Shown here piece after piece: positions 3,953 through 44,912 of a stretch of 64,000 nt of DNA (position 1 is its first letter; the number at the start of each line of letters is the position of its first letter). The position numbers and the translations under genes are program-made. The notes below the pieces were generated by a model that saw only the letters and a program-made list of their open reading frames with translations, did no database searches and was not told where the DNA came from. Source of the stretch: an uncultured Bifidobacterium sp. (lineage in GTDB: Bacteria > Bacteroidota > Bacteroidia > UKL13-3); NCBI GenBank assembly GCA_964529175.1, contig CAZGVO010000002.1, forward strand, positions 268,665 to 332,664, read 5' to 3'.

Positions 3953-4807
3953 TTATTTAGCTGAAGCAATCAATTTTTCAGCTTGTTTAATATAACTATC
4001 ATCTTTGTCTTCAGTAGCCATTTTAATTACTAAATTGGCAGTTTCAATAGCACCTTTTTTATCGTTAAGTTTTAACTGAATTTTTGCTTTTAATAAAACT
4101 ATCCAATATGCTTTAGGGTACGAAGCCATTGCTTTTTCTGTCCACTCAAGAGCAGTTTTTAAATCGCGGTTGGTTTCGTAGTAATAGCTTGCAGCCTGAA
4201 AGTAAGGACGGTTGTCTTTAACCACACTGCTTTCAATGTTTTTCATTATTTTACTGTCAATTTCGGTCATTACTGCAAACATTACTTTGGTGTTTTCCCA
4301 CATCAATTCAATATTGGCCGAAGTAGCTGTAACATCAGCCACACCCATGGTAAAAGTTTCTACTTTGTTGCTCATAGCCATGGTTTTAACTTTAAAGCGT
4401 AACACTTCGTTTTCCATTTTATAATCAGCTACATTGCCACCTAAAGTTAGGTCTTTATAAAGCATTATTTCCCAGCTTTCTTTGTTTGGAATAGAGTAAA
4501 TGGCATAAGTGCCCGCTTTTACTTCGGTTCCTTCTACTTTTACATCATCGCCAAAAGTAATTTTTGTGGCGCTATTTGCTCCAGTACGCCATACTTTTCC
4601 AAAAGGAACTACATCGCCAAAAACCACACGATTTTTTGCACCAGGGCGTGAGTAATCAATTGTAATTTCTGATAAGCCAAACGCTTGTTTAATGGTTTGT
4701 GAAGGACTAGCTGCTGGCACTTTTAATTGCTGTGCAATAACATTGGTTGATAAAGCTGCTGTTAGCATAAAAGCTGCAGCTATCGATTTCATTTTGTTTA
4801 GTAACAT
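3953..4807 (-). CDS. secreted DUF2911-like protein with C-terminal TPR-like region
   Basis: 284 aa with a signal peptide (MKSIAAAFMLTAALSTNVIA). Resemblance to the DUF2911 family of Bacteroidetes comes from memory only. Confidence 0.45.
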   Translation of the reverse strand: MLLNKMKSIAAAFMLTAALSTNVIAQQLKVPAASPSQTIKQAFGLSEITIDYSRPGAKNRVVFGDVVPFGKVWRTGANSATKITFGDDVKVEGTEVKAGTYAIYSIPNKESWEIMLYKDLTLGGNVADYKMENEVLRFKVKTMAMSNKVETFTMGVADVTATSANIELMWENTKVMFAVMTEIDSKIMKNIESSVVKDNRPYFQAASYYYETNRDLKTALEWTEKAMASYPKAYWIVLLKAKIQLKLNDKKGAIETANLVIKMATEDKDDSYIKQAEKLIASAK

Positions 4808-4943
4808 GTTTTGTTTGTTTTTAAATTTGGGTCAATATTAATAGTTCAAAGTTAATATACTGAGTCAAACTTTTAAATTAACATATTGTTTCATTAAAAA
4901 CATTCCTAATTATAGTTATTTTGCAGCCCATATTTATTTACCA

Positions 4944-5963
4944 ATGATTAATTCTAAAATCTTTAAAGTACAGCAAGCACTAATTTTTGTTGGAATTATT
5001 TTAACATTTATTGCCTGTGGCAATGATAATAATAACAATAAAACCACTACCAGTTCAGCACCCAATACCGAACCAATAACAGAAGCGGCTAAACAAATTA
5101 GCCCTAATTTTAATGCTGATTCAGCATATTATTTTATGCAAAAACAAGTTGATTTTGGTCCAAGAATTACGGCAAGTTCAGCTAGTTTAAAATGTGCTGA
5201 TTATATAGCTGCGCAATTTGAAAAATTTGGAGCAACAGTAGTAAAACAAAAAGGAACTGTTACTAATTGGGATAAACGTAAATTAAATATTGTAAATATC
5301 ATTGCTCAAACCAATCCAAAGGCGAGTAAACGTATTTTAATTACAGCACATTGGGATAGCCGCCCTTATGCCGATAACGACCCAGTGGAAGCTAATAAAA
5401 CCAAACCTGTTTTAGCTGCCGATGATGGTGCAAGTGGAATAGGAGTGATGCTTGAAATGGCAAGAATTATACAAGCCAATAAATTAGATATTGGCGTTGA
5501 TTTTATGTGTTTTGATGCTGAGGATTTAGGTAAACCTGAGTTTGAAGACTCCTATTGTTTAGGAACTCAATATTGGGGAAAAAACCAAGTGCCATTAAAT
5601 TACAAAGCGCAGTATGCCATTAACTTAGATATGGTTGGAGGTAAAGGAGCTAAATTTGTTTGGGAAAATAACAGTGTAACTCAAGGCGAAAGTATTTTAC
5701 GTTTGGTTTGGGGGAAAGCGGCTTTGCTAGGTAATTCAAACACTTTTCAGTTTTTACAAAGTGGCGCAATTATCGATGATCATGTTTATGTAAATAAATA
5801 TACCCAAATTCCTGCTATAGATATTATTCATTATAACCAAGAAACTGGCTTTCCTGCTTGGTGGCATACCGTTAACGATAATATGAACAATATTGATCAA
5901 AATACCCTAAAAGCAGTTGGCCAAACATTGTTGGAAGTTATCTATACCGAAACTGCTAAATAG
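4944..5963 (+). CDS. M28 family peptidase (glutaminyl-cyclase-like) lipoprotein
   Basis: 339 aa with lipoprotein signal (FIACGNDNN). M28 zinc-ligand motifs are present: HWDSRPYAD, DDGASGIGVMLEMAR, FDAEDLG. Confidence 0.7.
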   Translation: MINSKIFKVQQALIFVGIILTFIACGNDNNNNKTTTSSAPNTEPITEAAKQISPNFNADSAYYFMQKQVDFGPRITASSASLKCADYIAAQFEKFGATVVKQKGTVTNWDKRKLNIVNIIAQTNPKASKRILITAHWDSRPYADNDPVEANKTKPVLAADDGASGIGVMLEMARIIQANKLDIGVDFMCFDAEDLGKPEFEDSYCLGTQYWGKNQVPLNYKAQYAINLDMVGGKGAKFVWENNSVTQGESILRLVWGKAALLGNSNTFQFLQSGAIIDDHVYVNKYTQIPAIDIIHYNQETGFPAWWHTVNDNMNNIDQNTLKAVGQTLLEVIYTETAK

Positions 5964-6036
5964 TTGATAGCAAGTTTTTTGTGTATTATTTTAGTTTTAT
6001 GTGAATTAGGTATTTGGGCAGTTATCGTGCATTATT

Positions 6037-6696
6037 ATGACAAACGAAAAAATATTTAAACAAGTACTAAATAAGATAGACGAGTTGGTCGAAATTGCCA
6101 AACGTAAAAAATGGAAAATTACACTTAAGCCGTTTATTGATAAACCAGCGACAATTAAAGAGATAAATGCGGTTGAAAGTCAAATTGGACTGACAATACC
6201 AAATGACTTAAAAGAATTGTTTCTATTATCGAGACATGTAGAATTTAGATATCAATTTCGCGAAACATTATCAGAGGAGTTTAGTCAAAATTTTTCAGGT
6301 GACATTTATTGGAACTTAAACTCGTTGGCAGAGCAAAGTGCAAATTTTGGAGAATGGATTAAAGCATCGTTAGACCCCAAATATAATGACCAAGAAATAA
6401 TTGACGTAACTAAAAAAATCTGGAGAGACAAACTGCCGCTTATACATGTTCCAAATGGCGACATCATTGCGGTTGGTAATAATCCATCAGAGGTAATTTA
6501 TTTTTCCCATGAGGGTGACAATATGCATGGTAAAATTCTTAGTAATTCATTGTGGGCTTTTCTCGATTTTTATTCTCGAATTGGATTCGCTGGTAGTGAA
6601 GACTGGCAACTTGAACCATTTTATGACTTTGAAAAAAATATAATGGTGACACATGGAGATAAGGTTGATAGATACATTCAGTTACTAGAAGAATAA
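6037..6696 (+). CDS. SMI1/KNR4 (SUKH-1) family protein
   Basis: 219 aa. The N-terminal region (KPATIKEINAVESQIGLTIPNDLKELFLLS) matches the SUKH-1 signature PPATEEEI..LE..LGI.LP.DYKEFL. Confidence 0.5.
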   Translation: MTNEKIFKQVLNKIDELVEIAKRKKWKITLKPFIDKPATIKEINAVESQIGLTIPNDLKELFLLSRHVEFRYQFRETLSEEFSQNFSGDIYWNLNSLAEQSANFGEWIKASLDPKYNDQEIIDVTKKIWRDKLPLIHVPNGDIIAVGNNPSEVIYFSHEGDNMHGKILSNSLWAFLDFYSRIGFAGSEDWQLEPFYDFEKNIMVTHGDKVDRYIQLLEE

Positions 6697-6812
6697 CGAC
6701 TACCATAAAAGGGTTGTTAGACCATATTTATTGGATTACTACAAATATCATTTCGGTATAAATATGTAATTTAAAAACTTGTTCAATAGCTAAAATTGTA
6801 ATTAATTGCAGC

Positions 6813-8363
6813 ATGAATAAGCGCGTTATACTTTTAATTTTAGATGGCTGGGGACAAGGAACCAAATACCCAGGCAATGCTATAGAATTAGCCAATACTC
6901 CAAACTTTGATAACTTAATAAAAAACAACCCGCATTGTTTATTAAAAACCAGTGGCGAATCGGTTGGATTGCCCGATGGGCAAATGGGAAACAGCGAAGT
7001 AGGTCACATGAATATTGGCGCGGGCAGAGTGGTTTACCAACAATTGGTATTGATTGATAAAATGTTTCGCGAAAATAAAGTGGCAGAAATTGCTGTGTTA
7101 AAAAATGCCATTGAATATGCCATAACCAATAACAAAAAAATCCATTTAATGGGTTTGTTAAGCGATGGTGGCGTGCATAGTAGCTTAAATCATTTAAAAG
7201 GGTTATGCACTATTTTTAAAGAAGCTAATTTTAGTAATTTTTACTTACATGCTTTTACTGATGGCCGCGATACTGACCCTAACAATGGTATCAATTATTT
7301 AAAAGATACTTTACAGCATTTAGAAAAAACCAATGGAAAATTGGCGAGTGTTATTGGTCGTTATTACGCTATGGACCGCGATAAACGTTGGGAAAGAGTA
7401 AAGTTGGCTTACGATTTAATGGTGAATGGAACTGGTGAAAAAACCAACGATATTTTAGCAACTATTCAGCAAAAATACGATGAAGGCGAAACTGATGAGT
7501 TTTTAAAACCATTGGTTTGTGTAGATAAAAATTACAATGCGCTAGCTACTATTAGTCCTGATGATGTAGTAATTTGTTTTAACTTCAGAACCGATAGAGG
7601 CCGCGAGATTACGCAAGCTTTAACGCAAGAAGATTTTGCTGAGCAGCAAATGAAAAAACTGCCTTTAAAATACATTACATTAACAGCTTACGATAAAAAC
7701 TTTAAAAACGTAGAGGTAATGTTTGCCGATATTGAGTTAAATAATACTTTAGGCGAAGTGTTAGAAACCAACAATAAAAAGCAAGTACGCATAGCCGAAA
7801 CCGAAAAATATCCGCATGTAACTTTCTTTTTTAGTGGCGGACAAGAAAAGGAATTTACTGGTGAAACACGCCACATGGCACCATCGCCAAAGGATGTTCC
7901 AACCTACGATTTTAAACCCGAAATGAATGCTGAAGGTGTTTGTCAATTTACTTTAGATGAAATAGCTAAAAATGAAGCTGATTTTATGGTAGTAAATTTT
8001 GCAAATCCAGATATGGTGGGACATACAGGCGTAATCAGTGCTGAAATAAAAGCAGTTGAAAAAGTAGATGAATGTTTAGGACGCATAGTTCCTGAAGGTT
8101 TAAAAAATGGCTACTCGTTTTTAATTACTGCCGACCATGGAAATGGTGAATTTATGCTAAACGATGATGGCTCTGCCAATACTGCGCATACCACCAACGA
8201 AGTGCCTTGTCTTCTAGTAGAAACAGAACACACACATCATTTGAATAATGGAAAATTAGCCGATTTAGCTCCAACCGTATTGGCATTAATGGGCATAAAC
8301 CAACCAATAGAAATGGATGGAAAATGCTTGATTAATAAAAACAAAGAAGCAGTGGCTTTGTAG
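6813..8363 (+). CDS. gpmI: 2,3-bisphosphoglycerate-independent phosphoglycerate mutase
   Basis: 516 aa. MNKRVILLILDGWGQG N-terminus plus metal-binding and phosphoserine regions typical of iPGM. Confidence 0.95.
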   Translation: MNKRVILLILDGWGQGTKYPGNAIELANTPNFDNLIKNNPHCLLKTSGESVGLPDGQMGNSEVGHMNIGAGRVVYQQLVLIDKMFRENKVAEIAVLKNAIEYAITNNKKIHLMGLLSDGGVHSSLNHLKGLCTIFKEANFSNFYLHAFTDGRDTDPNNGINYLKDTLQHLEKTNGKLASVIGRYYAMDRDKRWERVKLAYDLMVNGTGEKTNDILATIQQKYDEGETDEFLKPLVCVDKNYNALATISPDDVVICFNFRTDRGREITQALTQEDFAEQQMKKLPLKYITLTAYDKNFKNVEVMFADIELNNTLGEVLETNNKKQVRIAETEKYPHVTFFFSGGQEKEFTGETRHMAPSPKDVPTYDFKPEMNAEGVCQFTLDEIAKNEADFMVVNFANPDMVGHTGVISAEIKAVEKVDECLGRIVPEGLKNGYSFLITADHGNGEFMLNDDGSANTAHTTNEVPCLLVETEHTHHLNNGKLADLAPTVLALMGINQPIEMDGKCLINKNKEAVAL

Positions 8364-27623: not shown

Positions 27624-30139
27624 AAAAAAATTTACTACTACTTTTTACTTATATCTTATTGCCTTTACTAGCCTTTAATCAATCATTTGAAAAGAATTTA
27701 AGTAAAGAAAAATGGCAATTTAAAAATGTCAAAGAAACGGAGTGGTTAAAAGCCAAAGTTCCTGGAACTGTTCATACCGATTTACTCCAATTAAAGAAAA
27801 TTCCTGATCCATATTTAGCCAATAACGAAAGCCTTTTACAATATTTAGAAAACGAAAATTGGGATTATAAAACTAATTTTATAATTACTAAGGCAGAACT
27901 AGATAACGAACACATTGATTTACAGTTTGATGGACTTGATACTTATGCCAAGGTTTTTGTAAACGATTCGCTGGTTTTGGAAGCAAATAACATGTTTAGA
28001 ACTTGGATTATTGATATAAAAAAAGGATTACATGTAGGCAAAAATACCATTTATATTCAGTTTGAATCTGCTGTAAATAAGGCAAAATTGGAGGTTGCTA
28101 AATTACCTTACACCTTACCTGGCGATGAAAAAGTTTTTGTTCGTAAAGCCCAATATCAGTTTGGTTGGGATTGGGGGCCACGCTTTGTTACTTGCGGTAT
28201 TTGGAAAGATGTAAAGTTAAAATTTTGGAACCAAGCTAAAATCAATCATGTGCAGTTTATTCAAAAAAGTTTAACCAATACCAAAGCGCTTGTGGAGTTT
28301 AAATTGCAAATTAACAGCTCGTTAGATGATATGTTTCAAATAAAAGTTCTGGATAACAATGCTGTTAAAGTTTTTGATATGAATGTTAATTTACAAAGTG
28401 GTTCAAATTCCATAAAATTAGCAATTGAAATAAAAGACCCCAAACTTTGGTGGACACATAATTTAGGAGAACAAAATTTATATAATTATGCTTTTAGATT
28501 AACAAATTCAAAGCGATTTGTGGATTCAACTAGTGTTACTTTTGGCTTACGAACCATTGAGTTAATGCAAGAAAAAGACAGTGTTGGCAAGTCGTTTTAT
28601 TTTAAACTAAATGGTGTGCCAATTTTTACCAAAGGTGCTAATTATATTCCTGAAGACAATTTTTTACCTCGTGTAAATTTAGCCAAAACCAAAGAGTTAA
28701 TTAAAAATGCCAAAGCAGCTAATATCAATATGTTGCGAGTGTGGGGTGGAGGAACTTATGCTAGCAACGATTTTTATAAATTATGTAATCAAAATGGAAT
28801 TTTGGTTTGGCAAGATTTTATGTTTGCTTGTGCCATGTATCCTGCTAATAATGAGTTTTTATCAAATGTAAGTGCCGAAATAAATGATCAAATTGTAAGA
28901 TTACGAAATAACCCAAGTTTGGCCATTTGGTGTGGCAATAACGAAATAGATGAAGGTTGGAAAAACTGGGGTTGGCAAAAGCAATTTAATTATTCTACTG
29001 CCGATTCAACTAAAATTGCGCAGCAGTATAAAACCTTATTCGAAATTGTAATTAAAAATGCGGTGTATCACTTAGATAATTCGCGTTCTTATTGGCCTAG
29101 TTCCCCAAGTATTGGCTGGGGGCGAAAAGAAAGTTTAACCCAAGGCGATGCTCATTATTGGGGTGTTTGGTGGGGAATGGAACCGTTTAAAATGTACCAA
29201 AATAAAGTTGGGAGATTTATGAGCGAGTATGGTTTTCAAGGCATGCCATCAGTTCAAACTTTTAAAAATATGGGTGCGTTGCAATTAAAAGAGGGGAAAA
29301 ATGTGTTGGATTCAGCTATTTTAAAAACGCATCAAAAGCACCCAACTGGCTATAAAACCATTCAAACTTACATGGAGCGCGATTATTTGGTTCCAAAAAC
29401 TTTCGAAAACTATGTGTACGTGTCTCAATTATTGCAAGCCGAAGGTATGAAAACAGCCATTGAAGCACATAGAAGAGCTATGCCATACTGTATGGGCAGT
29501 TTATATTGGCAGTTAAACGATTGTTGGCCTGTTACCTCTTGGAGTTCTGTTGATTATAATGGAGATTGGAAAGCTTTACATTATCAAGTAAAGCAATCAT
29601 TTAGCGATGTGTTGATTTCATTCCAAGATAAAGGCGATTCTGTTTTGGTTTATATTGTATCTGATAAACTTATGCCTATAAAAGGTACTTTGCAAGTAAA
29701 ACTAATTGATTTTCAGGGTAAAGTGCATTTTATTGAAAACGAGGAGATTGTAATAAAACCTAACACCAGCGCTATTTATTATTATTTTAGTAAAGCCAAT
29801 TTAAAAACCAATATTAATTTAAAAAATGTGGTGCTTCAAGCTTCTTTTACCAATAAAAACAACAATTTTAGTGCCTTACATTACTTTAATAGTCCAAAGA
29901 ATTTAAATATTCAAAATCCTAATATCCGCATAAAATATATTGGCAATAATCAAATTGAAATTACTACCGATGTATTGGCTAAAAATGTGTTTTTAAGTTT
30001 CAAAAATGAGCAAATTAAACTTGATAATAACTACTTTGATTTATTACCTAACGAAAAGAAAATCATTCAAATATCGAACAATTTTAAAACACCTGATTTA
30101 TTAGATATCAGCGTAAAAACTTTATTTGATGCCAAATAA
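27620..30139 (+). CDS. GH2 beta-mannosidase
   Basis: 839 aa. VPGTVHTDLL, QFGWDWGPRF and the GH2 catalytic region are present. 4-nt overlap with cutC. Confidence 0.9.
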   Translation: MKKNLLLLFTYILLPLLAFNQSFEKNLSKEKWQFKNVKETEWLKAKVPGTVHTDLLQLKKIPDPYLANNESLLQYLENENWDYKTNFIITKAELDNEHIDLQFDGLDTYAKVFVNDSLVLEANNMFRTWIIDIKKGLHVGKNTIYIQFESAVNKAKLEVAKLPYTLPGDEKVFVRKAQYQFGWDWGPRFVTCGIWKDVKLKFWNQAKINHVQFIQKSLTNTKALVEFKLQINSSLDDMFQIKVLDNNAVKVFDMNVNLQSGSNSIKLAIEIKDPKLWWTHNLGEQNLYNYAFRLTNSKRFVDSTSVTFGLRTIELMQEKDSVGKSFYFKLNGVPIFTKGANYIPEDNFLPRVNLAKTKELIKNAKAANINMLRVWGGGTYASNDFYKLCNQNGILVWQDFMFACAMYPANNEFLSNVSAEINDQIVRLRNNPSLAIWCGNNEIDEGWKNWGWQKQFNYSTADSTKIAQQYKTLFEIVIKNAVYHLDNSRSYWPSSPSIGWGRKESLTQGDAHYWGVWWGMEPFKMYQNKVGRFMSEYGFQGMPSVQTFKNMGALQLKEGKNVLDSAILKTHQKHPTGYKTIQTYMERDYLVPKTFENYVYVSQLLQAEGMKTAIEAHRRAMPYCMGSLYWQLNDCWPVTSWSSVDYNGDWKALHYQVKQSFSDVLISFQDKGDSVLVYIVSDKLMPIKGTLQVKLIDFQGKVHFIENEEIVIKPNTSAIYYYFSKANLKTNINLKNVVLQASFTNKNNNFSALHYFNSPKNLNIQNPNIRIKYIGNNQIEITTDVLAKNVFLSFKNEQIKLDNNYFDLLPNEKKIIQISNNFKTPDLLDISVKTLFDAK

Positions 30140-30140
30140 A

Positions 30141-30174
30141 TAAGTTAATATGACTATCGGAATATAGGAAAGTA
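30141..30174. repeat. left terminal inverted repeat
   Basis: taagttaatatgactatcggaatataggaaagta. The last 24 nt match the reverse complement of 34652-34675 perfectly. Confidence 0.85.
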
Positions 30175-30392
30175 TAAATAAAATTCAAATCTATCAATTT
30201 ATTAAGTCAAAATAATAATATATATGTTATATGAAACGAATAATGTATAAAATAATTGATTGTATTGATTATTTAAAAAGCGGTAGAAATGTTTTAACAA
30301 ATAAAGAAATATCTAACAAACTAGAACTTTTAGAAAAAAGAATAGAAGCTATAGAAGCTGAATTTACAGTTAGTGAAGGATTTCTTGACGAA

Positions 30393-30653
30393 CTATTTAT
30401 TATTTGAGAATTTTTTGAGTAATAAGGTTGAGCTAGGCGCAATTTTAAACAAAGTTGCGGTTATATCTTCAGCAATTTCATCACTAAAAATATCATCAAG
30501 TTCTTTTTTTTGAGGGGGTGTTAATTTTATATGTCTATTTATAAAATTATTCAACCCATCTAATCTAAATGCATTTATTGCAACAAGTCTATATAAATTG
30601 AGTATTTCATCATCTTTTGAAACAGCTACTGTTTTCTTTTTTGGACTTGGCAT
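30393..30653 (-). CDS. hypothetical protein (inside mobile element)
   Basis: 86 aa ORF immediately downstream of the transposase on the same strand. No recognisable motif. Confidence 0.35.
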   Translation of the reverse strand: MPSPKKKTVAVSKDDEILNLYRLVAINAFRLDGLNNFINRHIKLTPPQKKELDDIFSDEIAEDITATLFKIAPSSTLLLKKFSNNK

Positions 30654-30702
30654 AGTTGATAATTTTTGTCAAATAAATGTATTATTTTGATAAAAACCAA
30701 AT

Positions 30703-31632
30703 TTACAAAGCAGCAATAAGGATTCTATCAAAGAGGTCAGTTGTGAAATTTCTGCGATTAAGTTTGTAGCAGAACTCATTTAAATGGTTTTGTAAATTGT
30801 CAGTACCCACAGAATGATGTACACCTAATAATTGTCTTTTAGCATTTGCAATCATTGTATGTACCCAAGGTAATAATTGACCTGCTTTTTTACTAGGTAC
30901 TTCCATAGGTTTATGAGTTTTTACAACATCACTTAACTTTGAATATCCACGCCATTTGTCACTAATAATAGTTGCATTACTATCAACATGCTTTTTTACT
31001 TCATAGTTTATCCCTGTGCTAGTTAAATCATCCATTACAATCATTTTAACAAATCCCATAACACGTTTTTTCTTGTGTAGTGAAACTTGATTGTTATTTG
31101 GTTCACTTTCTACCATTACCAACACTTTTCTTTTGTCAGAACCACGACCTTGTTTAACCAATGGTTTATCTTCAATCACATTACCAAGTCTATCTTTTTT
31201 AGCAAGGTTTACCACTTCAAAAAAACCTTCATCCATTTCAATAGTGCCTTTTAATTTATAAAGGTTTTCTCTTTCACCCATTGCACGTCTTATTTTATTT
31301 ACCATATCTAAAACAGGTTCATAAAATTTATGACCTAGTTGTCTTTGCATTTCCAAAGCACTGAAAGGCTTTTTAACTGTTGACATTAGATGAATTGCAA
31401 GAAACCAACTATACATAGGCATTTTTGATTTATGCATCATTGTACTAGCTTTTAAATTCGTTCTTGAATTGCATTTTGAACATTGCCATTTTTCAACACC
31501 TTTTAACCAATAATGCTTTGTTACGATTAAACAGTTTTTGCATGTAATACCTTCTTTTTCTCTACACTCTTTTAAATATGTTTTACAAGATTGTTCGTCT
31601 TTAAATTTTTTTGTGAATTCTAGTATATTCAT
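30703..31632 (-). CDS. IS1595 family transposase
   Basis: 309 aa. N-terminal IS1595 zinc-ribbon (CKNC...W...QCSKC...KASTMMHKSKMPMYSWFLAIHLM...SALEMQRQLG...KIRRAMG), then a DDE region (IEMDEGFF...). Confidence 0.85.
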   Translation of the reverse strand: MNILEFTKKFKDEQSCKTYLKECREKEGITCKNCLIVTKHYWLKGVEKWQCSKCNSRTNLKASTMMHKSKMPMYSWFLAIHLMSTVKKPFSALEMQRQLGHKFYEPVLDMVNKIRRAMGERENLYKLKGTIEMDEGFFEVVNLAKKDRLGNVIEDKPLVKQGRGSDKRKVLVMVESEPNNNQVSLHKKKRVMGFVKMIVMDDLTSTGINYEVKKHVDSNATIISDKWRGYSKLSDVVKTHKPMEVPSKKAGQLLPWVHTMIANAKRQLLGVHHSVGTDNLQNHLNEFCYKLNRRNFTTDLFDRILIAAL

Positions 31633-32017
31633 TTTCTGTTTTTATCTTTTTTGACCCTACAAAGATATAAATGCCTGGTTATCTTTAGGTTACAAATTTA
31701 CTAAAGTTATCCACATAACTTTCTCATTATGAGAAACTTACATTCATTTTGGGATAAATATAGCTATATAATTATTATAGAGATTTAAGATAAAAAAGTT
31801 TTACTTGAACATAAAAAAAGCCACTTTTTACAAAGCAGCTTTTTTTTATATATAAGGGTATGAAAATAAATCGATTTAAAATACTGCTTACTGAAATGAA
31901 AAGAGAGAATTATAAAGTTTTCAACTTTTTTCAGAAACTGAGTCATATTTATTATATCCTTTTTCCGATTCATTATGAAAATGGATATAAAAAACGTGTA
32001 AAAAAATACCGTAAGAA

Positions 32018-32254
32018 TTAGCTAGATATTGCTATTGATGGTGTATAATCACTACCATTTGGCATTATATTGATAATTTCAATATCTTTATTTAAAAGGT
32101 TATTTATTATAGCCATATTGTGTGTGTCATCAAGCTCATGATGGAAAGAGGTAATATAATTACCTGAATAACTTTTTGGCATTATTCTTACTTTGTATGT
32201 TGGGTACTTGGCAAATATTAAATTAATCATATCTGCGATTTCTTGGTTGTTCAT
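32018..32254 (-). CDS. hypothetical small protein (cargo)
   Basis: 78 aa ORF immediately downstream of the DUF2158-like ORF, same strand. Confidence 0.3.
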   Translation of the reverse strand: MNNQEIADMINLIFAKYPTYKVRIMPKSYSGNYITSFHHELDDTHNMAIINNLLNKDIEIINIMPNGSDYTPSIAISS

Positions 32255-32282
32255 ATTTTTAGTGGTTAATAATGTGTTTAAT

Positions 32283-32459
32283 TATCAAAATCAGAAGGTA
32301 CAACTTCAAGCATTTTTATGTCAAAAACTTCCCTGTGCAATATACTATTTATATCATGCCAAACACAAATTGCATTGTCGTCATAAGTTCCTTCGATTAC
32401 CATAATCGTTTCATTGCCTTTCAATTTTACTGTATTACCTATTTCTAATTTGTCCATTT
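32283..32459 (-). CDS. DUF2158 (YodC-like) small protein, not in supplied ORF track
   Basis: My translation gives 58 aa: MDKLEIGNTVKLKGNETIMVIEGTYDDNAICVWHDINSILHREVFDIKMLEVVPSDFDN. It fits the DUF2158 pattern (GD.V.LKSGGP.MTV...C.WF). Confidence 0.5.
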
Positions 32460-32466
32460 GTTATAT

Positions 32467-33216
32467 TTAGTTTGTTGTGAAAATTTTCTTTGAATACCAT
32501 CTCCGATGGTCTCGCCCAAGCGAGTATTTATTATCAAAAAGAGCAAAATACAATGTATTTTTTTCTAGTTGATAGATGTCATTGATAGTACCTTCTTGAA
32601 TCAATTTACCTGAATAATCATATACTTTTATATTATCAATTTTAGATGTTGATTCAAACTTGTTATTTACAAACTTCACATCATTCACTAGTGATAATTC
32701 ATTAATAGAAGTATTACTTTTAGTATAATGATAAAATATTGTAGGATTTAATAGATATAATCTAGTAGAAATTTCATTTGCAGCTAAATATGATAATTTT
32801 AAAGAATCAGTTCTAAATTCAGTAAATGAATAGGATTGTTGTAAATTATATATATTAGAGGGTAATCATGCTCCATCGTTTATATTAAATACCCTAAAAT
32901 TAAAAGATATATTGTTAGTATATTGTATAAAATACATACTTATGCTATCTATTGTAACTTCTCTATTGAATTTTTTCACTAAATTTAGTATATGACCTTC
33001 TTGTAAAGTATCTTTTTTATTATTTGGATCAAATGCACTATATGATGCAATTGCCCAATATGTATTTGTTCTGCCATAATCAAATAGTAATACACTATCT
33101 TTATGGAAAGTATAACTTTCATAAACGGTGGTTGAATCTGCAGATTGTGCTTTCACATTATAGGTAAAGCCAACTAACGTTAGTGCTAGTATTAAACATT
33201 TGGTTAAATTTTCCAT
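32467..33216 (-). pseudogene. secreted protein gene interrupted by a single in-frame TGA (at 32866-32868)
   Basis: ORFs 32866-33216 and 32467-32688 are in the same frame (528 nt apart). I translated the 59 codons between them and found no other stop. The N-terminus has a signal peptide. The C-terminus (KVYDYSGKLIQEG...LYFALF) weakly resembles a T9SS sorting domain. Confidence 0.5.
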
Positions 33217-33221
33217 AGTCT

Positions 33222-33506
33222 TTATAAGTAAGATTTAAATTCTTCTACCTCACTTGAATGCATCCAAAAAGCAACTTCTTTACCGTTATATTTTTTAATG
33301 GTGACAAGCTTGTTACCTTGTAACATTTTAACCCCTTTGAAAATACCAATAATGAATATGATGTTTATAATAGCAATGAAAACATTACCCATTGAATGCA
33401 CTGTTTCAATATCTTCTCTTTGCACGACTTCGCTCATTCCAAGCAATCCATTAATTTTAACTGAACGATCGTTTACAGTTATTTTTCCGTTTTTAAATGA
33501 CTTCAT
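33222..33506 (-). CDS. hypothetical membrane protein (bacterial PH-domain-like)
   Basis: 94 aa with one transmembrane helix (VFIAIINIIFIIGIF) flanked by beta-rich segments. Confidence 0.35.
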   Translation of the reverse strand: MKSFKNGKITVNDRSVKINGLLGMSEVVQREDIETVHSMGNVFIAIINIIFIIGIFKGVKMLQGNKLVTIKKYNGKEVAFWMHSSEVEEFKSYL

Positions 33507-33541
33507 ATTTTTTATAATTTAGAGCAATTATAAAACATTTT

Positions 33542-33838
33542 TTGAAATTTAAACGAATCCGTTTAAATACTTTCTTTGTTCTTACTCTACTATTGGTTTT
33601 ACAAATGCCAATAAGTAAATTACAAAAAAGTCAGTTGAAAGCTTTGGGTTTAAAAGTGAAAACCATCAGAAAGGAAAAGAATTTAACCTTACAAGAATTG
33701 GCATATTCTATTGGTAAAGACCATCAATCTATATATAGACTTGAATCAGGTGGTGTAAACCCATCGTATCTATACTTACTTGATATATGCAAAGGTTTAG
33801 ATATTCATATTGATACTTTGTTGAAAGATATTGTCTAA
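33542..33838 (+). CDS. XRE-family helix-turn-helix transcriptional regulator
   Basis: Helix-turn-helix KEKNLTLQELAYSIGKDHQSIYRLESG. The likely true start is the Met at about 33608 (MPISKLQKSQLKALG). Confidence 0.7.
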   Translation: MKFKRIRLNTFFVLTLLLVLQMPISKLQKSQLKALGLKVKTIRKEKNLTLQELAYSIGKDHQSIYRLESGGVNPSYLYLLDICKGLDIHIDTLLKDIV

Positions 33839-33882
33839 TTACTTTTCAATTTTCATACCTTTGATTTCTAATTTGATAAGTT

Positions 33883-34197
33883 ATGGAAATTATAAAAACA
33901 TTTGGTGATTGGATTATTGATGAAGGTGGAATAACTTGGACAACACATGGTGATTATTTCATTGAAAAAAGTAGACTATGGGAAACAATAGATGGTAATA
34001 ATGGTGTTTTATTATTTGATTGGTTGATTCATATGGCAGAGAAAAAACAACTAACTTCAGAAAATGTACACGAGTTGAATAATGCTTTCATATATGCACT
34101 AGATTATTTTAAAGAGTTAAAACCTCAAAATATAAATCCTTCACTTGAAGATACATTATTACTTCAAAAGCAGATGTTAAATAATAGGAAAAAATAA
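33883..34197 (+). CDS. hypothetical protein (cargo, downstream of XRE regulator)
   Basis: 104 aa. No recognised motif. Co-directional with the XRE gene. Confidence 0.4.
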   Translation: MEIIKTFGDWIIDEGGITWTTHGDYFIEKSRLWETIDGNNGVLLFDWLIHMAEKKQLTSENVHELNNAFIYALDYFKELKPQNINPSLEDTLLLQKQMLNNRKK

Positions 34198-34208
34198 TAC
34201 GTTTTAAT

Positions 34209-34631
34209 ATGGAAACTATAGTATATCCAATACATTTAGAACAAATACGAAAGATTAAGAAAGGTAGTACTTTATTTAAGGCTTCAGAATTAGAAAATGT
34301 TTCAACATTGATAGATGGGGAGTGGCAAGAAAGCGGTATGTTCTTAATACAAGGTATAGTTCCTGATGAAAACCATTATTTGATTATAGACAGACCTAGT
34401 ACTAACATGTTAAATAATGAAACTTTTTTTGTTGTTTATATGATAACACACAGTCCTCAATATAACAACATTTTGATTCAAAAAGAGTGGGTACAAAATT
34501 TTGACTTACATGTAAATAGTCATGTTACTACAAATACTTTCCTAATCAGAGAACAGGATATTATTATGGATAAACAATATGGTGCTTTTGATTTAGAAAC
34601 ATTTAAAAAACATATCGAAGTAACATATTGA
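34209..34631 (+). CDS. hypothetical protein (cargo)
   Basis: 140 aa. 11-nt gap from the preceding ORF. Ends 20 nt before the right TIR. Confidence 0.4.
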   Translation: METIVYPIHLEQIRKIKKGSTLFKASELENVSTLIDGEWQESGMFLIQGIVPDENHYLIIDRPSTNMLNNETFFVVYMITHSPQYNNILIQKEWVQNFDLHVNSHVTTNTFLIREQDIIMDKQYGAFDLETFKKHIEVTY

Positions 34632-34651
34632 TAATTAACATGTTATAAATC

Positions 34652-34685
34652 TACTTTCCTATATTCCGATAGTCAGTTAAGTTAA
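34652..34685. repeat. right terminal inverted repeat
   Basis: tactttcctatattccgatagtcagttaagttaa, the reverse complement of the left TIR (24/24, then 8/10 with one indel). Confidence 0.85.
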
Positions 34686-34774
34686 TTAATAAACATGGCC
34701 TAATGTTTGAAATAACTTGCTTCGGTGCATGTATTTTAAACATTCACTTGAATTAAGCACCTAAATAGCTACTT

Positions 34775-35350
34775 TTGCCCAACTTTAAAAACAAGCAATA
34801 TTGCTTTATGTTAAAAAAAATACTTTTTATTCTTTGTGTATTGGCTTTTGCTAACATAGCTCAAGCTCAAAGAAATAACGATAAACCTTATGTGGCCGAT
34901 ACCACCCATTGGAGTAAGCCTAAAAAAGCAACTTATTTGGCTTTGGTGCCTGGCCTTGGTCAAATTTATAATAAAAAATATTGGAAACTTCCTATTGTTT
35001 ATGGTGGTTTTGCGGCTTTAATTTACTCTGTTTCGTTTTACCAAAACGAGTATGATATTGTTCGCCAAGCAGTATTGGATAAAAAGGCAGGAAGACCAAT
35101 TTCTGACCCAACTTTACAACCTTTGGATGATGCAAATTTGGTTTCGCTTCGCGATTTTTACAGAGAAAATCGCGATTTGTCGTGGATTGGAATAGGCGGT
35201 TTATATGCTTTGCAAATTATAGATGCAGCAGTAGATGCGCATTTGCAAGAGTTTGATGTAAGCGAAAACCTAACTTTAAAATGGCATCCTGATTACAGGG
35301 TACAAGCTGGAAGAGCCTTTGTTGGCGCCACTTTAAAGTTAGAATTTTAA
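34775..35350 (+). CDS. DUF5683-like membrane protein
   Basis: 191 aa. PGLGQIYNKKYWK motif and signal peptide. Probable start is the Met at 34811. Confidence 0.5.
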   Translation: MPNFKNKQYCFMLKKILFILCVLAFANIAQAQRNNDKPYVADTTHWSKPKKATYLALVPGLGQIYNKKYWKLPIVYGGFAALIYSVSFYQNEYDIVRQAVLDKKAGRPISDPTLQPLDDANLVSLRDFYRENRDLSWIGIGGLYALQIIDAAVDAHLQEFDVSENLTLKWHPDYRVQAGRAFVGATLKLEF

Positions 35351-44000: not shown

Positions 44001-44912
44001 ATGCAACACGATAAACATACTTATTATTTCGAGAAGTATTTGCGCAAAGAAATGTCGCGCAATGAAAGGGATGCGTTTGAAAAAAAACTAAGTACCGATG
44101 AAGCCTTTAAGGCCGATTTTGATAAATATGCTTTAAACCACGATTCGATTTTAAAAGAAGAGTTGGAAGAGTATTATAATGAGGAAATTATACCCGACAA
44201 ACCAAAAAATTATTCGTGGTTTTTAGTTTTAATTTCGTTTTTGGGTTTGGTATTAATCATAGATTTTTATGCCAATCAAAAATATGCTGATGAACAAAAA
44301 CAAAATCAAACCTACAAAGAAGAAATTGTAACACGATTTAAAAATGCTTTTGTGGAGCCTTTTAAACAAATAAGTTTTAAGAAAAGCGCTAAACAGCTTG
44401 ATACCATTTACAAACAACTTACTTTTAGTTCGGAGGAAGAAGAAAACGATACTACCATTGTTCAAACTCCTATAGATTCAAGTTTAATTGAAGAAAAAAT
44501 TATTGACCAGTTTCAGCAATTAATGCGCGAAAAAAACTTGGAAAGCAATGTAAAAGATGTGTTTTTGGATGATAGTTTAATGACTGTAGTTGATTTAGAA
44601 AAATTTAAAGAGAAGTTTAAAATAATTACCAATTCAACTGATAGTGCTTTTTCTGACAGCCTTGTTACCAGACTTACCTTACAAGCTTTAATAAAACAAA
44701 ATAATAGCAATAAGCCTTTATTTGTAGAGTTTTGGCAATCGTTAGTTGGTTTTAACGGTTATCAATTTACTGGCAAAAAATTAGTGCTTTACGGCATTCG
44801 AAAACCGTTTGATATATTTATTTTAAAACAAAATAATTTGTTTGTGCTACATTCAAAATGGGGCGAAACTGCTTTACAAGCCGATAATCAATTACACAAA
44901 TTTGAAGACTAA
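44001..44912 (+). CDS. hypothetical single-pass membrane protein (anti-sigma-like N-terminus)
   Basis: 303 aa. One transmembrane helix (SWFLVLISFLGLVLII). Acidic, K-rich periplasmic part. Confidence 0.45.
   Translation: MQHDKHTYYFEKYLRKEMSRNERDAFEKKLSTDEAFKADFDKYALNHDSILKEELEEYYNEEIIPDKPKNYSWFLVLISFLGLVLIIDFYANQKYADEQKQNQTYKEEIVTRFKNAFVEPFKQISFKKSAKQLDTIYKQLTFSSEEEENDTTIVQTPIDSSLIEEKIIDQFQQLMREKNLESNVKDVFLDDSLMTVVDLEKFKEKFKIITNSTDSAFSDSLVTRLTLQALIKQNNSNKPLFVEFWQSLVGFNGYQFTGKKLVLYGIRKPFDIFILKQNNLFVLHSKWGETALQADNQLHKFED

Follow-up and report, generated by a model that had tools for sequence, protein, structure and literature searches.

A probable 4.5-kb transporter insertion sequence of the IS1595 family in a Bacteroidota genome

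Introduction

Does a 4.5-kb AT-rich block that holds a transposase gene of the IS1595 family move as one unit together with its other genes, or does a short insertion sequence (IS) sit in or beside unrelated DNA? The question is raised by a locus in a stretch of 64,000 nucleotides (nt) from an uncultured member of the Bacteroidota (contig CAZGVO010000002.1 of assembly GCA_964529175.1, positions 268,665 to 332,664 of the forward strand), the whole of which we analyzed and here call the window. IS-like elements with passenger genes are known as transporter ISs (tISs) and are said to be confined to the IS1595 and IS66 families (10.1101/2021.05.26.445724). A first-pass annotation of the window had proposed that the block is such a passenger-carrying IS1595 derivative. 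We conclude, with a rough probability of 0.9, that positions 30149-34677, 4529 bp in all, are one transposable unit and that this unit is a tIS of the IS1595 family. The proposal is borne out by empty sites in related genomes, by ends that belong to the transposase's own clade, and by close relatives that carry passengers themselves.

Results

Terminal repeats and target-site duplication delimit the element

We found that the 24-mer TGACTATCGGAATATAGGAAAGTA occurs exactly twice in the 64-kb window, once on each strand (30151-30174, plus; 34652-34675, minus), and thus the perfect 24/24 inverted repeat reported by the first-pass annotation is real and unique in the window. Allowing three mismatches gave 0 further sites in the window and 0 matches in 100 shuffles. 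The enclosed block has a GC content of 24-30%, compared to 30-39% in the flanks, in agreement with its earlier description as AT-rich. The element itself runs from 30149 to 34677, and its 26-nt terminal repeats agree at 24 of 26 positions with zero indels, the inner 24 nt being perfect. The boundary features are as follows.

30141..30148, no strand: left 8-bp target-site duplication, TAAGTTAA, a direct repeat of 34678-34685
30149..30174, plus strand: left terminal inverted repeat, on the downstream side of the transposase gene, 26 nt, TATGACTATCGGAATATAGGAAAGTA
34652..34677, minus strand: right terminal inverted repeat, on the upstream side of the transposase gene, 26 nt, reading ACTGACTATCGGAATATAGGAAAGTA from the end inward
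34678..34685, no strand: right 8-bp target-site duplication, TAAGTTAA

The direct repeat around the block is 9 nt long, TAAGTTAAT at 30141-30149 and 34678-34686, and contains the 8-bp duplication. The register used here, in which the element starts two nt before TGAC and the 8-bp duplication abuts it, was taken from relatives with unambiguous duplications; in this register the ends read TATGACTATCGG... and ACTGACTATCGG.... These boundaries revise the earlier description in two respects. It had extended the inverted repeat to 34 nt by a further 8/10 match after a 1-nt indel, a candidate that we rejected, as the outer 8-10 nt are the target duplication and form a direct repeat. It had also let the block begin 1 nt past the stop codon of the beta-mannosidase gene (30137-30139), while the element starts 10 nt past it. 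The insertion lies in the spacer between that stop codon and a DUF5683 gene (34808-35350), and no gene is disrupted.

The transposase gene looks intact

The element encodes one transposase, and the open reading frame (ORF) list holds no second one inside the block.

30703..31632, minus strand: intact IS1595-family DDE transposase, 309 aa (PF12762, PF12760, NF033547)

The protein matches PF12762 (DDE_Tnp_IS1595; 2e-19, 70.5 bits against a cut-off of 27), PF12760 (Zn_ribbon_IS1595; 5e-6, 26.7 bits against 25.4) and the NCBIfam model NF033547, 'IS1595 family transposase' (183.8 bits against 75), in line with the earlier call of an IS1595 transposase with a zinc ribbon. An N-terminal zinc ribbon is present in all IS1595 groups except IS1016. 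We could align the transposase end to end with 13 relatives, and C31, C34, C51, C54, D134, D225, H258, K265, E286, K290 and R293 are invariant in the 14 sequences. They comprise the N-terminal CxxC...CxxC zinc ribbon and a DDE-type core with H258 in third position and K265 seven residues on. As all invariant residues are present in a full-length alignment, the gene looks intact.

The stop codon of the transposase gene lies 554 nt from the left end and its start side 3045 nt from the right end. About eight ORFs accompany it, roughly 3 kb of them beyond the transposase gene as seen from the left end, much as the first-pass annotation had it (about 0.5 kb from the left end, with about 3 kb of other genes).

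Within the family, the ISSod11 group is marked by a DDH-K catalytic signature, an E..(K/R)4..R7 motif further along and ends of the form nnnGcnTATC. The residues H258/K265 and E286/K290/R293 and the ends TATGACTATC and ACTGACTATC resemble this pattern, and the element may belong to the ISSod11 group, which is not known to have passenger-carrying members.

Three related genomes carry the empty site

If the block had inserted as one piece, relatives without it should join the two flanks directly and hold a single copy of the target. Three related genomes, about 98, 95-98 and about 90% identical to the window, share the neighborhood without the block, and all three lack exactly 4529 bp plus one copy of the duplication. 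In each, the mannosidase stop is joined to the flank that begins at 34686 in the window, as the first-pass annotation had suggested looking for.

Empty-junction sequence: GCCAAATAAATAAGTTAATTAATAAAC

The closest empty site, L011, was found via the exact product of the right-hand DUF5683 gene, and the other two, L067 and L068, via a homology search with the mannosidase. L011, a contig of 918 nt, stems from another sequencing project (ERR15804838); the right flank directly follows its mannosidase stop, and after in silico removal of 30149-34685 from the window, the contig is colinear with the window over its full length at 98.0% identity. Its target copy reads TGAGTTAA, with one mismatch to TAAGTTAA. 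L067 is a 32-kb syntenic contig with 95.5% identity to the left of the site and 98.4% to the right. Its junction reads GCCAAATAAATAAGTTAATTTATAAAC and holds one exact TAAGTTAAT, and its BLAST alignments with the window stop at 30149 and resume at 34678, with a 9-nt overlap. L068 (NCBI assembly GCA_027484685.1), at about 90% identity, shares the gene order, and its spacer at this position measures 130 nt.

Because the empty sites hold one copy of it, TAAGTTAA is the duplicated target. The first-pass annotation had proposed caAATAAA and ttAATAAA as an imperfect duplication, flagged as uncertain; with one TAAGTTAA(T) in the empty sites, this pair was rejected.

The comparison could also be read the other way round, with an ancestral block that the relatives later lost, be it by deletion or by precise excision, since presence and absence alone give no direction and DDE elements can excise. 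Against this, the three relatives without the block stand at rising distance from the window, their spacers are of normal length (130-131 nt) and hold one target sequence, and the GC content of the block is markedly below that of its flanks. Moreover, neither the duplication nor the inner 24 nt of the repeats shows a mismatch, which suggests that the insertion was recent. We consider ancestral presence followed by loss improbable, and even under it the unit is still a mobile tIS.

As a separate observation, two short-read Logan contigs of the same organism (L004 and L007) end at window positions 30178 and 34681, in or near the repeats and the duplication. Such breaks are expected from the inverted 24-mer; alternatively, filled and empty alleles could coexist in the samples.

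The outer ends belong to the transposase

We searched for the transposase in GTDB representative genomes, a set that lacks the source genome; this gave 45 loci, nearly all in Bacteroidota. At least 20 relatives at 40-49% identity (among L016-L050) are plain elements of about 1000-1070 bp, consistent with the size of about 1 kb that had been given for a plain IS1595. From the start codon it is about 45-115 nt (mostly 45-65) to the upstream end, and from the stop codon about 44-57 nt to the downstream end; many of these elements show an AT-rich 8-bp duplication. The closer relatives, at 52% identity or more, nearly all carry passengers and measure 2.2-5.1 kb, four of them with perfect 8-bp duplications.

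L012, Paraflavitalea speifideaquila: 60% identity, 3934 bp, duplication TAATGTAA
L013, Cytophaga metagenome-assembled genome (MAG): 53%, 5141 bp, duplication TTGGATTA
L015, Saprospiraceae MAG: 53%, 4443 bp, duplication AAGTATAA
L063, Mucilaginibacter sp. dw_454: 59%, 3900 bp, duplication TTATTTTT
L060, metagenome contig: 60%, 2224 bp, no recognizable duplication
L057, metagenome contig: 74%, at least 2.2 kb, cut by the contig end, duplication not seen
L027, Chitinophagaceae MAG, incomplete gene match: 59%, at least 3.3 kb, one end found, duplication not seen
L058, metagenome contig: 60%, at least 3.6 kb, cut by the contig end, duplication not seen

The inner motif GGAAAGT is common to six ends including those of the window, most often as TAGGAAAGT. 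A variant, TAGGAAACAA, occurs in L015 and in L014 (Edaphocola aurantiacus, 52%), which has a clear left end and no right end that we could place; L013 and L063 differ.

We built a weight matrix from 38 ends of relatives, excluding the window, and scanned the 64 kb with it. The two best matches are the ends of the block (left 19.7 bits, right 14.7 bits); the third best anywhere scores 10.4 bits, and the best inside the block 0.0. As the outer ends lead the scan and nothing inside the block scores above 0.0, the outer repeats are the transposase's own and there is no nested 1-kb IS. From this and the empty sites, we conclude that the 4.5 kb is one transposable unit. The checks suggested by the first-pass annotation, or their closest equivalents (empty sites, ends of the transposase's clade, passenger-carrying close relatives), all favored its reading.

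These results bear directly on the possibility of a plain 1-kb IS1595 in or beside an unrelated 3.5-kb island, with outer repeats that are foreign or a chance palindrome. Such an arrangement would suit the size of plain ISs of this lineage, about 1.0 kb, and the 385-nt spacer with a terminator-like hairpin that separates the transposase gene from the passengers upstream. Yet the only strong ends lie outside, they bear the clade signature NNTGACTATCGG...TAGGAAAGTA that is common to L012, L058, L060 and L027, and the empty sites miss the whole block while retaining exactly one target copy. We therefore regard a plain IS at this locus as very improbable. A small genomic island or prophage remnant placed by a site-specific recombinase, with the IS1595 transposase as a mere resident, is extremely improbable: an XRE repressor-like regulator and a phage-family protein are among the passengers, but we found no integrase or recombinase ORF, the window has no tRNA, the edges are terminal inverted repeats with an 8-bp direct duplication and not att-type repeats, and the 24-mer has no match in IMG/VR.

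The third-best matrix match, at 44579-44600 (AATGACTGTAGTTGATTTAGAA), has no partner and is probably due to chance.

In a neighbor-joining tree of the transposases, the eight passenger-type elements included form one clade, apart from the plain ones. The tree was made without L015 and L027; L014, whose length is not established, falls inside the clade. In this branch, extra DNA separates the ends from the transposase gene in every related element for which we could place the ends.

Several points weigh against the single-tIS reading or its details. The two outermost bases of the repeats are unlike (TA vs AC). The 8-bp register was chosen by the example of the relatives and the direct repeat is 9 nt long, such that a 9-bp duplication is, strictly taken, conceivable. 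The neighbor-joining tree has no support values. By exact-protein look-up, this exact transposase is on record only at the window locus, and the 24-mer has no further copies in the rest of the window, in JGI metagenome contigs or in IMG/VR. With a single known copy, nothing directly shows that the element has moved repeatedly or moves at present: the mobility of a tIS is judged by several copies or by experimental transposition, and we found one copy.

On the other side stand a DDE_Tnp_IS1595 domain, a zinc ribbon, terminal inverted repeats and an 8-bp target-site duplication, as befits the family, and passengers between the repeats with a single transposase, in a repeat-to-repeat segment that is one insertion, as befits a tIS.

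Two side observations concern the relatives. In L014, at 7817-7862, two family-type ends stand back to back in opposite orientation, 2 nt apart, which suggests two related elements side by side, or one inserted into the edge of the other. L060 (7521-9744) and L058 (7010-10658) carry identical 61-aa and 69-aa ORFs near one end and are of unlike length, a gap that could stem from recombination between copies or from internal deletion.

Passenger genes

The remaining features of the block are listed from left to right.

30231..30407, plus strand: 58-aa candidate ORF (ORF list)
30393..30653, minus strand: 86-aa candidate ORF just downstream of the transposase gene (ORF list; a called gene on Logan contigs)
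31809..31851, no strand: hairpin flanked by an A-run and a T-run, in the gap between the passenger operon and the transposase gene (RNA fold)
32018..32254, minus strand: 78-aa passenger ORF (ORF list)
32278..32457, minus strand: 59-aa passenger ORF matching the phage protein family phrog_3261 (E = 6.6e-9)
32467..33216, minus strand: 249-codon frame with an in-frame TGA at 32866-32868 (translation)
33222..33506, minus strand: 94-aa passenger with one hydrophobic segment, VFIAIINIIFIIGIF (ORF list, translation)
33542..33838, plus strand: XRE/Cro-type helix-turn-helix (HTH) regulator (PF01381 HTH_3, 4.6e-11)
33883..34197, plus strand: 104-aa passenger, the upstream gene of a two-gene module (homologue pair in contigs L065 and L066)
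34209..34631, plus strand: 140-aa passenger of a rare family with a MazF/Kid/CcdB-like predicted fold (predicted structure)

The 58-aa ORF has no match with E < 0.001 in Pfam, PADLOC and PHROGs, the 86-aa ORF no family match in Pfam, PADLOC, PHROGs and NCBIfam, and the 78-aa ORF no significant match in these four. At its N-terminus, the 59-aa passenger weakly resembles a 62-aa passenger in L012. Run on the block, PADLOC recognized the HTH protein alone, and scans for Rfam families, tandem repeats and sigma-70 promoters did not rise above chance. The hairpin folds at -18.1 kcal/mol (z = -4.1; 0/200 shuffles fold as well) and looks like a bidirectional terminator, a function assigned from its structure. 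It also overlaps a sub-threshold Rfam match to the Bacteroides small RNA BTnc231 (E = 0.23).

The TGA splits the 249-codon frame into pieces of 116 aa and 73 aa, and the same stop is present on an independent Logan contig (L001). The frame has a signal-peptide-like N-terminus and, at its C-terminus, weak similarity to a sorting domain of the type IX secretion system, with a match to TIGR04183 (Por_Secre_tail) at E = 0.01, below the curated cut-off. It is probably a disrupted gene for a secreted protein, and the TGA probably a nonsense mutation in a passenger gene.

The XRE regulator likely starts at the ATG at 33605, for a length of 77 aa. XRE-type HTH regulators are a recurrent passenger, present in the window, L012, L027 and L013: homologues of the window protein are found in L012 (42%) and L027 (57%), and L013 carries an HTH_3 protein. 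Other passengers of the relatives include a PKD-domain protein in L012 and, in L015 at 5571-7866, an EcoRI-like adenine methyltransferase (4.5e-130) with a GmrSD_N/HNH nuclease, which by sequence looks like a restriction-modification or defense pair on a tIS.

The 104-aa and 140-aa genes are the last two before the right end. For the 104-aa protein, a search of 5.8 billion clusters gave a single homologue, and the structure model is weak, with a predicted local distance difference test score (pLDDT) of 72. The 140-aa family has 17 representatives among 1.84 billion, with H56, T80, H81 and N87 among its invariant residues, and its predicted structure is confident (pLDDT 92.7; predicted template-modeling score, pTM, 0.86). 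The predicted fold bears a modest resemblance to MazF/Kid. None of 14 family members matches a Pfam family, PemK/MazF and CcdB included; a profile search gave no match in the PDB, hhalign against Escherichia coli MazF gave a probability of 0.1, and Foldseek found nothing significant for the predicted structure.

In L065 and L066, outside any IS and on a contig unrelated to the window, the 104-aa protein has a homologue (36% identity) whose gene lies a short way upstream of that for a homologue of the 140-aa protein (68% identity). Since the homologues are paired there, the 104-aa/140-aa pair is a conserved module. We hypothesize that the pair is toxin-antitoxin-like; the 140-aa protein is a candidate toxin-like protein and the 104-aa protein its candidate antitoxin-like partner. 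Compared with the type II modules MazEF and Kid-Kis, the pair has no sequence match to PemK/MazF, and the upstream 104-aa protein has no recognizable antitoxin DNA-binding domain.

Two further observations concern the surroundings of these homologues. In L065 at 4520-5601, and likewise in L066, the two homologues are split by a 45-aa ORF and stand beside a Cas9 called in fragments. The only close homologue of the 104-aa protein, in L062 (4480-8300), lies downstream of a type IIG (Eco57I/MmeI-like) methyltransferase-nuclease in an island that also holds a DUF3987 protein and an HTH_17 protein, and that looks like a mobile defense island.

Proposed mechanism and comparison with known elements

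By analogy with the family, the transposase would bind both 26-bp terminal inverted repeats (NNTGACTATCGG...GGAAAGTA) and, with its zinc-ribbon domain and core acting on the repeats, would move the entire repeat-to-repeat segment. Staggered cleavage of an AT-rich target would then give the 8-bp duplication TAAGTTAA. Carried along would be one passenger operon co-oriented with the transposase gene, with small proteins and one secreted-type gene apparently broken by a stop, and a divergent operon of the XRE regulator followed by the 104-aa/140-aa pair. The passengers have no known role in transposition; the pair may act as a toxin-antitoxin-like or defense-like module that helps retain the element. 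Whether IS1595-family elements move by cut-and-paste or copy-out is, to our knowledge, not established. The block holds no relic inner end that would show how the passengers were acquired.

Members of the IS1595 family usually make 8-bp duplications and encode a transposase with a zinc finger and a DDE domain (PMC8101967). Regulators are named among the passengers of IS1595-family tISs such as ISNha5 (PMC11891212, citing Siguier et al. 2009), and passenger-carrying ISNwi1 and ISPna2 derivatives are other tISs (Siguier, Gagnevin and Chandler 2009, as cited in PMC11891212; 10.1101/2021.05.26.445724). Like these, the window element has a single zinc-ribbon transposase, terminal inverted repeats, an 8-bp duplication and, between them, passengers that include a regulator. 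Unlike ISNha5, ISNwi1 and ISPna2, it has H at the third catalytic position and ends NNTGACTATC, its host is a member of the Bacteroidota, and its passenger set is another. With the plain Bacteroidota IS1595 elements it shares homologous transposases (40-49%), the end consensus (A/T)(A/T)TGA(C/G)T(A/G)TC(C/G)G and AT-rich 8-bp duplications; unlike them, it has distances of 3045 and 554 nt between gene and ends and about eight extra ORFs, where the plain elements have no passengers. Unit transposons of the Tn3 family also combine terminal inverted repeats, a short duplication and passengers, but the window element is much smaller and has no resolvase, res site or Tn3-type transposase.

Since tISs have already been described in the IS1595 family, the element adds a member to a known class and leaves the present view of IS biology as it is. 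It is nonetheless a clean natural case, with exact ends, a duplication, three empty sites and an intact transposase, and it is suited to naming in ISfinder and to the annotation of a gene-poor 4.5 kb. The comparison suggests that one Bacteroidota branch of IS1595 habitually carries passengers, including regulators and defense-like genes, which bears on how the smallest transposons gain and spread accessory genes. More specifically, it is possible, although we put it at somewhat less than even odds, that these elements constitute an unnamed Bacteroidota IS1595 lineage, with a DDH-type transposase and ends NNTGACTATC...TAGGAAAGTA, in which passenger carriage is the rule and mini-transposons shuttle small defense or toxin-antitoxin cassettes. 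If this tentative reading holds, the cargo would often include an XRE regulator and could include modules of a defense or addiction type, as with the L015 pair and the MazF-fold module described here.

Genomic neighborhood

In the host, an uncultured member of the Bacteroidia, the genes around the element carry type IX secretion system (T9SS) sorting domains, DUF5683 and DUF5686. The nearest named homologues of the window mannosidase are about 55% identical and come from Flavobacterium, and Bacteroidota-labeled MAG proteins reach up to 64%.

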